Source: a virus (taxonomy: Duplodnaviria; Heunggongvirae; Uroviricota; Caudoviricetes). From it: a stretch of 64,000 nucleotides of DNA. How positions within the stretch are numbered: the stretch's first letter is position 1; every line of letters begins with the position of its first letter. A model generated the notes under the pieces. It was not told the origin of the DNA and made no database searches. It was given only the letters and a program-made list of their open reading frames with translations. The position numbers and the translations under genes were made by a program. Shown piece after piece: positions 19,234 to 22,985 of the stretch. Location of the stretch: the IMG/VR virus record IMGVR_UViG_2585427757_000006; one strand, 5' to 3'.

Positions 19234-19551
19234 TGGAGAGTTCCCTTTGCGTATATAATTATCGTCTGAAACAACTTGTTTTCTTATATGTGATATAGCC
19301 TAAATGCCTACGGCTGCGGTGTAAAGGTTAAATGGTAGGTTGTGATTAACAATTGGCAAACATAGCTTGTATTTGTCTGTTGAAAAAAGTAACAATGACC
19401 TCTATATTACAAGTACGGTGATATGCCGTACACAATTTGATAATGCACACGTAATGGGCTATAGCCTTTTAAAGTAATTTTTGAGTCGAAAACTCAGTTT
19501 GAACAGAGGAGATTGATGGCCTTCCTACATCACGGCCATCAGGAGGAATAC

Positions 19552-19821
19552 ATGTCAGCACTAAAAAAGCAGCGCATCGATTTGAGATTAACCGATGACG
19601 ATAAAAGCATCATCGAGGAAGCTGCCGCAATGTCTAACCAGAGCATTACTCAGTTTATGGTTAGCAGTGCATCTGAACGTGCCGTGAAAGTTATAGAGCA
19701 ACACCGTAGACTAGTTCTGAATGAAGAATCCTGGAATCTGGTTATGGACGCTATAAGCAATCCTCCGGCACCGAACGACAAGCTGAAACGAGCTGCTGAT
19801 CGTCTGAAAAGCATGGAGTAG
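19552..19821 (+). CDS. DUF1778 (TacA-like) antitoxin
   Basis: ATG at 19552 preceded by AGGAGG; about 90 aa, sequence RIDLRLTDDDKSIIEEAAAMSNQSITQFMV typical of DUF1778 antitoxins of GNAT toxins; ORF track start 19513 is probably upstream of the real start. Confidence 0.7.
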   Translation: MSALKKQRIDLRLTDDDKSIIEEAAAMSNQSITQFMVSSASERAVKVIEQHRRLVLNEESWNLVMDAISNPPAPNDKLKRAADRLKSME

Positions 19822-19828
19822 TTTACTC

Positions 19829-20350
19829 GTGGATAATATAAAGATAGAAATTTTCTCTGGAGAGAAAGATTATGATTTGAATGGTTTTGATTGCGGTGAA
19901 GAATCACTAAATGCCTTTTTAACCAACCACTTAAAAAGGCAGCATGAGGGAAAAATTCTTCGCGCTTATGTGCTTTGCACGAAAGAAGGCAGACCAAAAG
20001 TGTTAGGGTATTACACTTTGTCAGGTAGCTGCTTTGAAAAGGAGTCCTTACCTTCAAGAAGCCAGCAAAAGAAGGTACCTTATCGGAATGTTCCAAGTGT
20101 TACTTTGGGTAGGCTGGCTTTGGACAAGTCCCTTCAAGGTCAAGGATTTGGCTCAATGCTTGTAACACATGCAATGCGCGTTGTGTACAATGCATCTCTT
20201 GCTGTAGGCATTCATGGACTTTTCGTTGAGGCGTTAAATGACAAAGCCAAGGCGTTTTATAAAAGTTTAGACTTTATCCAGCTGGTTGGTAACAACGAGC
20301 GTTCTTTGTTCTATCCTACAAAATCTATCGAAAAATTGTTCGAAGAATAA
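19829..20350 (+). CDS. GNAT-family acetyltransferase toxin (TacT/AtaT-like)
   Basis: 173-aa ORF 8 bp after antitoxin; GNAT motif region LALDKSLQGQGFGSML. Confidence 0.7.
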   Translation: MDNIKIEIFSGEKDYDLNGFDCGEESLNAFLTNHLKRQHEGKILRAYVLCTKEGRPKVLGYYTLSGSCFEKESLPSRSQQKKVPYRNVPSVTLGRLALDKSLQGQGFGSMLVTHAMRVVYNASLAVGIHGLFVEALNDKAKAFYKSLDFIQLVGNNERSLFYPTKSIEKLFEE

Positions 20351-20381
20351 TGTACTCCCCTCAAGTGAGGGGAACTTCGCA

Positions 20382-20597
20382 TCACCAACCGCAAACTCTC
20401 TCTCCCATCGTATTGTGAAAAAGGATTTGGCGTTCGGTTTCTTCGGTCATCACATCATTATTGCTGATATAGATAGGCCCAGCTCCATCGCAGAACAATA
20501 CGCTGGCGGTTTGTGGTTTAATGACGCACCCACTTATCATACAACTCACGATGAACGGCAGAAGCATCTTTCTGACGTATTTTATTGCTCGTCTCAT
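20382..20597 (-). CDS. o-spanin candidate (lipoprotein overlapping i-spanin gene in another frame)
   Basis: 71-aa ORF with lipobox-like ISGC after hydrophobic stretch; overlaps 3' end of 20518-20769. Confidence 0.45.
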   Translation of the reverse strand: MRRAIKYVRKMLLPFIVSCMISGCVIKPQTASVLFCDGAGPIYISNNDVMTEETERQILFHNTMGERVCGW

Positions 20598-20769
20598 TCA
20601 CCACTTCCACTGTGCTTTGAAGTCGTTTTCTGTCTTCCTGTTTTGCCTTCTCTTCCATTGCTCGTCGCGCCGCATTCCCGCCCATCGTGTAAGCGCCGAC
20701 AAGAACGAAAAGAACGGCAGCCAGCGTAATCAAAGCAACTTTTAGCTTTGTCATCAGGCTGCCTAGCAT
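20518..20769 (-). CDS. i-spanin candidate (N-terminal TM plus coiled coil)
   Basis: 83-aa ORF; TM helix VALITLAAVLFVLVGAY then charged helical region. Confidence 0.5.
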   Translation of the reverse strand: MLGSLMTKLKVALITLAAVLFVLVGAYTMGGNAARRAMEEKAKQEDRKRLQSTVEVVNETSNKIRQKDASAVHRELYDKWVRH

Positions 20770-20770
20770 A

Positions 20771-21490
20771 TTAGACCATCCCTTTCTGGTGTTTTCTTAC
20801 CTGCGACCAGGCAATGAATCCGGCCACAACAATAGTGGCAATACCGAAGATGATGCGTACTGTATCCCCGCTAGAGATATGACCTTGTGCTTTATCCATA
20901 GCAGCGGAAACCTGCGGCATAACATCGGCCAGCTGCGCCAGACCAATACCTGCTGTAACAGTTGCGCCTGCGGTTTCTTTAGTTACAGGAACAGCCTTCA
21001 CGGTTTTCACCGGCTTAACAACGCCAGCTCGACGCAGACCTTCCTCAATAACTTCTGCCGCATACCAGGTGTTCAGCGTTTTTAGCGGACCTCGCCCATT
21101 CTCATGGCGAATGATTGCCTCAACCAAAGGTCGAAGAATGTCGTAATCATGCAGATCGATAATCATGTCTGCGGTTACACCAACGGCTTTAGACACCTCA
21201 TTAATGTAGGCGTCAGTATTGTTTTCATTCGGCGGTGCCCAACGTTCAATAACTTCACGAATGGTATCGATACTTGAGCCGTCTTTTGCGCGACGTTTGT
21301 CGTGGTAGGTAATTAGAGTCACCGCCAGCGCACGAATCCCCCAAACAGGGTCTTTAAACGTGCAAAAGCGCGGTTCGTCTGGATTCGCAACCAGACCTTG
21401 CCACGGTGATCCTTTATCAAGATTACCGGGGTTATTATTACGAATGCCTCTCGGAGTCTTCATCCTTGATCTCCTGTTATTGCAGTCCAC
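20771..21490 (-). CDS. endolysin-like protein with C-terminal transmembrane helix
   Basis: 239-aa ORF; N-terminal NNPGN motif region; C-terminal hydrophobic IIFGIATIVVAGFIAW; position between holin-like gene and spanins. Confidence 0.5.
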   Translation of the reverse strand: MDCNNRRSRMKTPRGIRNNNPGNLDKGSPWQGLVANPDEPRFCTFKDPVWGIRALAVTLITYHDKRRAKDGSSIDTIREVIERWAPPNENNTDAYINEVSKAVGVTADMIIDLHDYDILRPLVEAIIRHENGRGPLKTLNTWYAAEVIEEGLRRAGVVKPVKTVKAVPVTKETAGATVTAGIGLAQLADVMPQVSAAMDKAQGHISSGDTVRIIFGIATIVVAGFIAWSQVRKHQKGMV

Positions 21491-21812
21491 TTTTTACGCC
21501 ATACGCGGCTAACCCCAAAAGCAGTGCGGTAATAATGAACGACGTTATTTTAGAAACAATGCCGCCAAAGAACCCACTTGAGATGGAATCTAACCGGTTA
21601 AGGAGTTTGTCCAGATTGGAGTGTTGAATACTATGTTGCGCCGGGGTCATATCACCAAAGTAGGTTTTCAGCTGATCATTGACCTCCTGGCCAATTTCTT
21701 CACGTAGCTCTTTACCTAATTTGCCAACAACCTCCCGAGCAACGATCGCGGCAATACGCTCAACTTGCTCTGTTGTAACGCCCGCCATCTCGTTCGACAT
21801 GTTTTCCTCCAT
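21477..21812 (-). CDS. holin candidate
   Basis: 111-aa ORF with C-terminal TM segment ITSFIITALLLGLAAYGV; first gene of lysis block. Confidence 0.45.
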   Translation of the reverse strand: MEENMSNEMAGVTTEQVERIAAIVAREVVGKLGKELREEIGQEVNDQLKTYFGDMTPAQHSIQHSNLDKLLNRLDSISSGFFGGIVSKITSFIITALLLGLAAYGVKSGLQ

Positions 21813-21881
21813 GAAAAGTCAAATCGGGATGGCGGATTTATATCACATTTCACCCTTTTGTTGTAGGTGTGTACTTACCTA

Positions 21882-22115
21882 TCATTCAGCATTGCAACCG
21901 ATTGATGAGAAAGCACCTACTCCAACCCATCGCCAGTTATAGATGCTACCCGCTTTGTATAAGGTATAGTCGTTCACTTTTTTAACAGCATATATGGGTA
22001 TGACTGTCTCCTGTCCACCAATGATAGCTTCACCATAACATATAGGTGTCGGCAATTTCTGGCAGCCAGTAAGAGAGAGAACAACAGCTATTGTTAGAAA
22101 TAATCTTTTCATCAT
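21882..22115 (-). CDS. small lipoprotein (candidate receptor-blocking superinfection-exclusion protein)
   Basis: 77-aa ORF with signal peptide plus lipobox LTGC; located immediately downstream of tail-fibre genes. Confidence 0.5.
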   Translation of the reverse strand: MMKRLFLTIAVVLSLTGCQKLPTPICYGEAIIGGQETVIPIYAVKKVNDYTLYKAGSIYNWRWVGVGAFSSIGCNAE

Positions 22116-22122
22116 TTACTCA

Positions 22123-22731
22123 TCAGTTATACAGATTTCTATTTATTACCGGTACTCTGCCATTTACGCTAAAACTATGGCCGCCATTAAGTTGGTTTAC
22201 GAATATCGAGCTAACAGTATTTCCATATGCCGCATATCCATAAACCATTGTCATGGCTCCGCCCGGTACTGGAACAGCGAACACATTCGCATATGTTGGG
22301 ATTATCGCTGGAGGGTAATCAAAAACATGCCCTCCAGAGCTGTTCCACTCCGTATTATTAAGAAAGGTAAATGAAAGTGGGATATTTGCCGTATTATAGA
22401 TTTCCCCCCCTTGTGCATTGAAAAAACTCATGCCCCAAGTTTCTTTTTTGGCTATACCTTTCGAAAATACGTATATCGTGGCACTAGAGTCGCTACCCTG
22501 ACCTCCGAAACTGTAAATCACCTGGTTGTTACGCACTATTCTGTTGGCTATTAATGAAACAGCTTTCGAATAGGCAACAAAAATAATCGGTGAACGATCT
22601 GGAGATATTTTGGTGTTAAACTCTGTCCCGCCGGACAAAGAAACAACCTGCTTTCTCTGAAAAACGATAGGAGACAAAGAAGGAGACATCCAGACCTTCC
22701 CGTCAGATCGATATATCTTGCTTCCGTACAT
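22123..22731 (-). CDS. tail-fibre-associated hypothetical protein
   Basis: 202-aa ORF translationally coupled (TAATG) to upstream ORF; Gly/Ser/Asn-rich. Confidence 0.45.
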   Translation of the reverse strand: MYGSKIYRSDGKVWMSPSLSPIVFQRKQVVSLSGGTEFNTKISPDRSPIIFVAYSKAVSLIANRIVRNNQVIYSFGGQGSDSSATIYVFSKGIAKKETWGMSFFNAQGGEIYNTANIPLSFTFLNNTEWNSSGGHVFDYPPAIIPTYANVFAVPVPGGAMTMVYGYAAYGNTVSSIFVNQLNGGHSFSVNGRVPVINRNLYN

Positions 22732-22985
22732 TATTTTTGAAAAACCAATATGTTTAAATTACCACTAGCTCCAGACCACGAAATGGTATTTCCAGAAACC
22801 GTAAGACTTGTGTACTTTCCATTGGTTACGTCCATTATGTAATAGTCGATTCCCAATCCCGCCTCAACCTCATATGTTCTACTTCCTGAACCAGAGGGAG
22901 TAAAATAATCGAGGTAATAAACAGGGGCCAACGCATTGACCATCTCCTGTCTTGATGGCGACCAAACCTGTGCACCATAGCTCAT
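22731..22985 (-). CDS. tail-fibre-associated hypothetical protein
   Basis: 84-aa ORF downstream of side tail fibre. Confidence 0.4.
   Translation of the reverse strand: MSYGAQVWSPSRQEMVNALAPVYYLDYFTPSGSGSRTYEVEAGLGIDYYIMDVTNGKYTSLTVSGNTISWSGASGNLNILVFQK

Follow-up and report, generated by a model that had tools for sequence, protein, structure and literature searches.

A toxin-antitoxin operon of the AtaRT/KacAT type as a probable addiction module of an SSU5-like phage-plasmid of Escherichia coli

The question raised by the locus described here is what a pair of genes resembling a bacterial toxin-antitoxin (TA) system is doing beside the partition genes of a virus. The pair lies in a 64-kb stretch of DNA from a member of the Caudoviricetes (IMG/VR record IMGVR_UViG_2585427757_000006; 64,000 nucleotides, nt), which as a whole is called the window below. 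A preliminary description, made from the sequence alone, had read it as a DUF1778/GNAT pair of TacA/TacT-like architecture, which might serve a phage-plasmid either as an addiction module or against other phages. The best overall explanation, to which we give a probability of roughly three in four, is that an SSU5-like phage-plasmid carries this TA operon of the AtaRT/KacAT type in its maintenance region, and that the operon acts there as an addiction module.

Identity of the two genes

The genes and the translation signal in front of them are as follows.

19541-19546, + strand: Shine-Dalgarno sequence AGGAGG of the antitoxin gene, read directly, 5 nt 5' of the ATG
19552-19821, + strand: antitoxin gene, ATG to TAG, 89 amino acids (aa); member of the DUF1778/TacA1 family, with a ribbon-helix-helix at the N terminus and a region that binds the toxin at the C terminus (Pfam and PDB matches)
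19829-20350, + strand: toxin gene, GTG to TAA, 173 aa; GNAT aminoacyl-tRNA N-acetyltransferase of the AtaT/KacT clade (PDB matches, conserved residues)

Both reading frames were established from the list of open reading frames (ORFs) and the raw sequence. The arrangement is bicistronic with the antitoxin first, and the two genes are separated by 7 nt (19822-19828), one fewer than the 8 bp first given. The antitoxin gene contains, close to its 3' end, a GGAG that precedes the toxin GTG by 10 nt, and this position suggests that the two genes are translationally coupled.

The preliminary description proposed an antitoxin of about 90 aa starting at 19552 after AGGAGG and an acetyltransferase gene with a GTG start, and both proposals hold. 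Its left coordinate of 19513, on the other hand, is the TTG of the longest possible antitoxin ORF (102 aa) and not the true start. The start is placed at 19552 because KacA and AtaR align with the antitoxin from residue 1, and because the colinear plasmid pLAO7 has the two genes annotated in RefSeq at 19552-19821 and 19829-20350. The 102-aa form, and the nearly identical 101-aa version annotated in phage Cyrano, were rejected, since homologues and proteins of solved crystal structure align from the ATG at 19552. The extra codons of the 102-aa ORF also overlap a conserved inverted repeat (described below), which counts against the TTG.

The family assignment is clear. The antitoxin matches Pfam PF08681 (TacA1/DUF1778) with E=5.7e-26 and 90.7 bits, against a cut-off of 21, over profile positions 1-79 of 80, and the toxin matches Acetyltransf_1 (GNAT) with 28.9 bits against a cut-off of 20.7, so that the hidden Markov model search suggested at the outset finds both families above the Pfam cut-offs. 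Comparison with PDB chains is more specific. AtaT of E. coli O157:H7 (E=8e-79, 266.9 bits) and KacT of Klebsiella pneumoniae (E=3.7e-74, 251.7 bits) both match the toxin over its full length, whereas the other solved GNAT toxins score at most 76.6 bits (E=1e-20 to 3e-3). The best PDB matches of the antitoxin are KacA (E=6.6e-42) and AtaR (E=1.3e-40). In ungapped alignment the toxin is 69% identical to AtaT, and the antitoxin 80% identical to KacA and 76% to AtaR.

The functional residues of AtaT have been defined by mutagenesis, including the mutants G108D and Y144F (PMC7595197). Aligned to AtaT, the toxin keeps the catalytic Y144 and the acetyl-CoA residue G108, the latter within the motif QGQGFG (103-108), which has the Q/R-x-x-G-x-G/A form of an acetyl-CoA pyrophosphate-binding motif. 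It also keeps the tRNA contacts F30, H34, R37, S76, S78, K81, K82, Y85, R95 and K165, and the pocket residues L27 and L136. The preliminary description had made its reading depend on similarity to the DUF1778 and GNAT-toxin families and on a conserved acetyl-CoA motif; the similarity is found, and both the motif and the catalytic tyrosine are present. On the antitoxin side, the residues with which KacA reads DNA are R8, D10 and R12 (PMC6698736), and all three are kept.

We are therefore almost certain that the pair is a DUF1778-GNAT type II TA system of the AtaRT/KacAT clade, both in family identity and in biochemical type. Judged by sequence comparison, it belongs in 'clade A' of Bikmetov et al. 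(PMC9177977) and outside the TacAT clade proper, given that structures of the TacT type are matched only at about E=1e-18, compared to about 1e-79 for AtaT. The original likening to TacA/TacT is thus correct for the two-gene DUF1778/GNAT architecture but not for the clade, the AtaRT/KacAT clade being far closer.

It should be said that the feature is already known at the level of annotation and of expression in lysogeny. RefSeq names the antitoxin (WP_001351987.1) either 'DUF1778 domain-containing protein' or 'type II toxin-antitoxin system TacA family antitoxin', and a protein identical to the toxin 'GNAT family N-acetyltransferase', while the Cyrano record has 'KacT acetyltransferase-type toxin' and 'putative antitoxin'. 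Misson et al. (2023; PMC9928086) list the Cyrano pair, a locus 97% identical to the present one, among the morons of a prophage of an intramacrophage pathogen, and report for LF82 lysogens that the antitoxin transcript exceeds the local prophage background 60-fold and the toxin transcript 35-fold. The finding is of little importance by itself. It does confirm that E. coli phage-plasmids of the SSU5/pHCM2 type carry a TA pair of the AtaT/KacT, tRNA-acetylating type in their maintenance region, and in practical terms it corrects the start codon and defines the operator and the borders of the cassette.

Promoter, operator and leader

Upstream of the antitoxin gene, three elements were identified.

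19380-19408, + strand: candidate sigma-70 promoter, TTGAAA-17 nt-TATATT, predicted by consensus scan (10/12 matches)
19413-19431, no strand assigned: predicted operator, palindrome GTACGG-TGATATG-CCGTAC, matching the KacAT operator in half-sites and spacing, 5 nt 3' of the -10 hexamer
19514-19541, + strand: leader inverted repeat TGATGGCC-N12-GGCCATCA, from a repeat search; an 8-bp hairpin abutting the Shine-Dalgarno sequence

The half-sites of the palindrome and their 7-nt spacing are identical to those in the oligonucleotide AAATGTACGGTTATTAACCGTACATGA that was co-crystallised with KacA4KacT2 (PMC6698736), and the KacAT operator spans the transcription start site (PMC6698736). The pattern is unique in the window, where 0.05 matches would be expected by chance even with one mismatch allowed. 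It was then looked for in loci fetched for comparison, 38 of which bear the TA pair; these were drawn from IMG/VR contigs, E. coli phage-plasmids, a phage-plasmid of Enterobacter and an IncF plasmid, together with the chromosomal ataRT. All but one of the 38 have the palindrome once upstream of the operon, and the exception (L040) has it with one mismatch; it was not found in either of the two fetched loci that lack the pair.

The seven central nucleotides are far more variable than the arms. Nine forms of the spacer are present among the fetched loci, and the KacAT oligonucleotide has a tenth, with half-sites that are invariant apart from the mismatch in L040. A varying spacer between constant half-sites is the signature of an operator that is read by a protein, and we hold it likely, with good confidence, that the operon is autoregulated at this palindrome.

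Operator and ATG are 120 nt apart in the window; in the other copies from plasmids and viruses 112-222 nt lie between them, compared to 26 nt in chromosomal ataRT. The inverted repeat at 19514-19541 is kept in a diverged allele (L004, 89% identical). A structured RNA across the whole 120-nt leader was considered and rejected as a general claim: the predicted fold has z=-0.36 relative to shuffled sequences, and only the 8-bp hairpin stands out. A scan of the leader against Rfam gave no family, its sole match being a chance one to a miRNA (E=0.34).

It is worth adding that the leader of the SSU5-like copies (19432-19551 in the window) also contains a 10-bp palindrome, GGCTATAGCC, at 19457-19466, and that a related motif, GATATAGCC, is found in the parA promoter region (19291-19299).

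The phage-plasmid and its cargo slot

Many E. coli plasmids of about 110 kb contain the 1.1-kb TA region at 100% identity, and the region is 97-99.5% identical to the 'Escherichia phage' records CMS-2020a and Cyrano. The window as a whole is colinear, coordinate for coordinate, with the 109.6-kb E. coli phage-plasmid pLAO7 (NZ_OP242221.1). To the left of the pair are genes for a primase, a DnaB-like helicase, ParA and the partner gene of parA, and to the right genes for a holin, an endolysin, Rz/Rz1, and tail and head proteins. With head, tail and lysis genes alongside those for ParA, DnaB and primase, the phage-plasmid context that had been supposed is clear, and the element is an E. coli phage-plasmid of the SSU5/pHCM2 family.

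Comparison with SSU5 itself (L002) defines the borders of the inserted segment.

19341-20399, + strand: TA cassette, occupying a variable cargo slot that extends from the parA promoter region to where the Rz/Rz1 genes end (blastn against SSU5)

Homology between the window and SSU5 extends over 18204-19340 (86%) and 20400-22985 (75%), with none between, and from this gap we conclude that the cassette, with its own promoter and operator, is the occupant of a variable cargo slot. SSU5 carries two unrelated hypothetical genes, SSU5_031/032, in the same slot, and the Klebsiella relative pJN2-26 a single gene of 185 aa; SSU5_031/032 have no match in Pfam or PADLOC, and the 185-aa gene has none in Pfam. 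Within the E. coli lineage the setting of the TA pair is constant. The order partner gene and parA (leftwards), antitoxin and toxin (rightwards), Rz and endolysin (leftwards) is found in 28 of 28 SSU5-like IMG/VR loci, a set defined by a toxin identity of at least 92%.

Between phage-plasmid alleles the antitoxin has a ratio of nonsynonymous to synonymous substitution rates (dN/dS) of 0.04, and the toxin one of 0.06-0.15, implying that both genes are maintained by purifying selection. The differences are unevenly distributed. In the window and Cyrano the antitoxin genes are identical, and the last 252 nt of the toxin genes contain one difference, compared to 25, mostly synonymous, in the first 270 nt (19829-20098 in the window, 5530-5799 in the Cyrano locus, L001). 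This pattern suggests a recombination-like mosaic patch covering the N-terminal half of the toxin.

Proposed function

By analogy with its relatives, the toxin would use acetyl-CoA to acetylate the α-amino group of charged tRNAs and so block translation. The targets described for clade A toxins are Gly-tRNA and tRNAs carrying hydrophobic amino acids (Trp, Tyr, Phe and Met, including the initiator) (PMC9177977). The 89-aa antitoxin would neutralise the toxin through its C-terminal region, and a T2A4 hexamer would repress the operon by binding of the antitoxin ribbon-helix-helix domains to GTACGG-N7-CCGTAC, possibly with conditional cooperativity, again by analogy. If the operon is expressed in lysogeny, a daughter cell that has lost the plasmid could not replenish a labile antitoxin and would be arrested by the toxin left over. 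The pair would in this way complement the adjacent ParA partition system as an addiction module, as phd-doc does for phage P1.

Type II TA systems of plasmids classically act through post-segregational arrest of this kind. The present pair is on a low-copy extrachromosomal replicon and, to judge from the 97%-identical Cyrano locus, is expressed while the element is resident, as an addiction module should be. Given that the cassette lies beside partition genes, that its relatives lie by replication or partition genes on three other backbones, and that phd-doc of P1 provides a precedent, we regard plasmid stabilisation as rather more probable than not to be its main selected role. On this basis the pair may help to explain the stable persistence of these phage-plasmids, and would be a factor in any attempt at curing them. 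Phage-plasmids of the SSU5/pHCM2 type sometimes carry extended-spectrum β-lactamase genes.

Several observations weigh against an addiction module acting as just described. That the toxin is toxic and acetylates tRNA, that the antitoxin is labile and neutralises it, and that the plasmid is stabilised are all carried over to this allele from relatives that are 69-80% identical. Four positions that in AtaT contact tRNA or line the amino acid pocket are changed in the toxin (R40E, N41G, K79Q and A26S), and its target preference may differ from that of AtaT as a result. The antitoxin of chromosomal ataRT, which is present in about 30% of E. coli, might cross-neutralise the toxin and so weaken addiction. 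Lastly, SSU5 and the Klebsiella relatives persist without the cassette, which is thus accessory and not essential for maintenance.

The other explanations differ mainly in who benefits from the arrest. In an anti-phage role, by abortive infection or superinfection exclusion, infection by another phage would shut down transcription in the host or cause the antitoxin to be degraded, and the toxin so freed would acetylate charged tRNAs and halt translation before the cycle of the invader is complete, protecting sibling cells that bear the phage-plasmid; this is compatible with addiction, and is suggested by the location of the cassette in one of the variable cargo slots that a temperate element has, by expression of the operon in lysogeny (PMC9928086), by the DUF2971 gene in a nearby variable slot, which matches the PADLOC candidate PDC-S31, and by the recognition of tRNA-targeting toxins as a class of phage defence effectors (PMC12409363). 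Neither TA protein, however, matches PADLOC-DB v2 at E<=0.01, and the library of papers searched for an anti-phage role of GNAT toxins gave nothing relevant, and in particular no DUF1778-GNAT pair reported as a defence system. The position of the cassette beside the partition genes is moreover conserved, and the relatives on conjugative plasmids are found near genes for replication or partition and not in defence islands. On balance the evidence points to addiction; none of it is specific for an anti-phage function, which we consider unlikely. Alternatively, the pair could be a moron that benefits the host through transient growth arrest and a persister-like tolerance of antibiotics or stress, rather than through retention of the plasmid. 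KacT is reported to halt growth and induce antibiotic tolerance (PMC9431474), for TacT a link with the formation of persisters in macrophages has been described (PMC5959882), and the Cyrano homologue is listed as one of the lysogeny-expressed morons of an intramacrophage pathogen (PMC9928086). Addiction explains the location in a low-copy maintenance module more simply, and the tolerance reading draws on analogy. Tolerance phenotypes of TA systems also generally depend on overexpression, and this possibility appears to us quite improbable.

Still less altruistically, the pair could be selfish or competitive, bringing the phage-plasmid no net benefit and persisting because its loss is counter-selected, or it could act in exclusion or anti-addiction against modules of the AtaRT type. 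Such modules are frequent in E. coli, occupying 1626 chromosomal and 299 plasmid places in 5426 genomes, and at most 71 genomes have two; cross-neutralisation between chromosomal and plasmid GNAT/ribbon-helix-helix pairs has been shown in Klebsiella (PMC9431474); and the mosaic, recombination-like patch in the toxin lies between near-identical phage-plasmids. Against this, the co-occurrence of at most 71 is only slightly below the value of about 90 expected under independence, and is too confounded, by phylogeny and by the pooling of IncF and phage-plasmid alleles, to be interpreted, and the three TacAT pairs of Salmonella are mutually insulated (as cited in PMC9431474). We give a purely selfish role little credence. 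A role in conflict between elements more broadly, whether besides or instead of addiction, and whether by abortive infection and superinfection exclusion or by competition with AtaRT-type modules through cross-neutralisation or anti-addiction, seems to us rather unlikely; if it is correct, the patch in the N-terminal part of the toxin, which faces both tRNA and antitoxin, would reflect escape from cross-talk. Finally, the toxin matches broad GNAT models such as RimI in Pfam and NCBIfam, and generic matches of this sort would also be expected of an ordinary small-molecule or protein acetyltransferase with only a transcription factor encoded upstream. Such a reading is extremely improbable in view of the 69% full-length identity to AtaT, the retention of tRNA-binding and catalytic residues, the cognate DUF1778 partner with its C-terminal toxin-binding region, and the conserved operator.

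Comparison with known systems

The pair can be compared most directly with AtaR-AtaT of E. coli O157:H7 (PDB 6GTS, 6AJM, 6AJN). The gene order is the same, the proteins are of similar length (AtaR 88 aa and AtaT 175 aa, compared to 89 and 173 here), Y144, G108 and most of the tRNA contacts are shared, and so is the operator form GTACGG-N7-CCGTAC. AtaR-AtaT differs in being chromosomal, between livJ and panM, and not on a phage-plasmid; in a DNA identity of about 65%; in its 26-nt leader from operator to ATG, where the present pair has 120 nt and an additional hairpin; and in an ATG rather than a GTG start for the toxin.

KacA-KacT of K. pneumoniae HS11286 (PDB 5ZGN, 5XUN) has the closer antitoxin, 80% identical and with R8, D10 and R12 in common. 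Its crystallised operator of 27 bp has the same half-sites and spacing, and in both systems the operator is in the region of the promoter and transcription start. The KacAT system is chromosomal and from another genus, and its operator spacer is TTATTAA, compared to TGATATG here. Conditional cooperativity was shown for KacAT and is proposed here only by analogy. TacA-TacT of Salmonella, ItaRT and AtaRT2 have in common with the pair the two-gene architecture, the domain families and the chemistry of aminoacyl-tRNA acetylation, but they belong to clades B and D and have different or narrower tRNA specificities (PMC9177977).

As a functional analogue, Phd-Doc of P1 is likewise a type II TA system on a plasmid prophage, and it is from context that we infer a similar stabilising role here. 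Phd-Doc, which PMC6698736 also mentions, is autoregulated by the TA complex and stabilises the P1 prophage by post-segregational arrest. Its protein families are unrelated to those of the present pair, Doc being a Fic kinase that acts on EF-Tu.

Distribution and relatives

The par locus of the element is present in 264 of 5426 complete E. coli genomes (about 5%), with all 265 matches on plasmids, and among the records listed these are mostly of 94-115 kb. The TA pair itself is found at a DNA identity of at least 80% in 155 E. coli records. The 1626 chromosomal places mentioned above are those of the roughly 65%-identical ataRT between livJ and panM, in about 30% of complete E. coli genomes. 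In PLSDB, 574 plasmids have a relative of the pair, 145 of them at 90% identity or more and 389 at 60-80%, and many of the latter are conjugative.

Among the relatives on other backbones are DUF1778-GNAT pairs on conjugative IncF and other enterobacterial plasmids, e.g. pHN15978-1 (IncFIA/FIB/FIC backbone). One such IncF copy adjoins RepB, among genes for replication and maintenance. Its toxin is 71% identical and it has the same operator, 112 nt upstream of the ATG; it differs in the backbone and in a DNA identity of about 68%. A further pair is found at 1-6519 of L039 (IMGVR_UViG_3300025735_000294), an 89.9-kb 'viral' contig, with the toxin 72% and the antitoxin 89% identical and the same operator half-sites. 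It is accompanied by genes for a Dam/Dcm-type methyltransferase fusion, a ParA-like protein, StbB and ParM/StbA, and represents another maintenance-region context, possibly in a different phage-plasmid. In the SSU5-like pEh65_1 of Enterobacter hormaechei (L005, 3501-4298), the pair occupies the same slot as here, with the antitoxin 88% and the toxin 62% identical. The annotated ATG of the pEh65_1 toxin is probably not its start, which would lie 21 nt further upstream, at a GTG.

Neighbouring genes and other features

The partition genes on the left of the cassette, and a structure on its right, are listed here.

18565-19233, - strand: small ParA-type partition ATPase, 222 aa (Pfam MipZ/AAA_31/CbiA); context gene
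18206-18565, - strand: 119-aa gene overlapping the end of parA, the presumed partner or adaptor gene; the label 'ParG-like' is unconfirmed
20354-20375, no strand assigned: GC-rich stem-loop between the convergent toxin and Rz1/Rz spanin genes; terminator-like match on the minus strand, with a 9-bp stem

As had been noticed at the start, parA is divergent from the TA pair; the intergenic region is 318 bp. ParA matches the NCBIfam model ParA_partition with E=1.9e-33, a score below the model's cut-off. It is a small Walker-type protein without an N-terminal DNA-binding domain, as is characteristic of the ParF/ParG type (type Ib).

The 119-aa gene has been labelled in two ways. The Cyrano annotation, 'RelE/ParE putative toxin', has no support from Pfam, NCBIfam or PDB, and 'ParG-like', as in the preliminary description, is not confirmed, relying on gene position and on hints from secondary structure. 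For ParG or RelE/ParE there is no match in Pfam, NCBIfam or PDB (phmmer, E up to 10), and the AlphaFold2 model is poor (pLDDT 62.7) and without a match in a Foldseek search of PDB. In an alignment of the family the N-terminal tail is basic and disordered and the C-terminal part helical and conserved, and a centromere-binding adaptor is a reasonable, if presumptive, guess.

On the other side of the cassette, the ORFs at 20382-20597 and 20518-20769 (- strand) look like two spanin genes. An Rz-like ORF of 83 aa overlaps one of 71 aa with a lipobox-like ISGC, presumably Rz1. The RefSeq table of pLAO7 has the Rz-like ORF only, and the Cyrano record annotates a shorter Rz1.

The DUF2971 gene (17406-18209, - strand) matches the PADLOC candidate system PDC-S31 with E=3.3e-41. 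It occupies a second variable slot, separated from the TA pair by the par genes. A near-identical copy is present in only 2 of the 28 related IMG/VR loci and a 39%-identical copy in one more; other phage-plasmids have in this slot a LEM-3-like GIY-YIG gene or another hypothetical gene.

A cluster of four tRNA genes is located at 7162-7719 (- strand), for Ser(UGA), Thr(UGU), Tyr(GUA) and Asn(GUU), and Tyr-tRNA is a reported substrate of AtaT.

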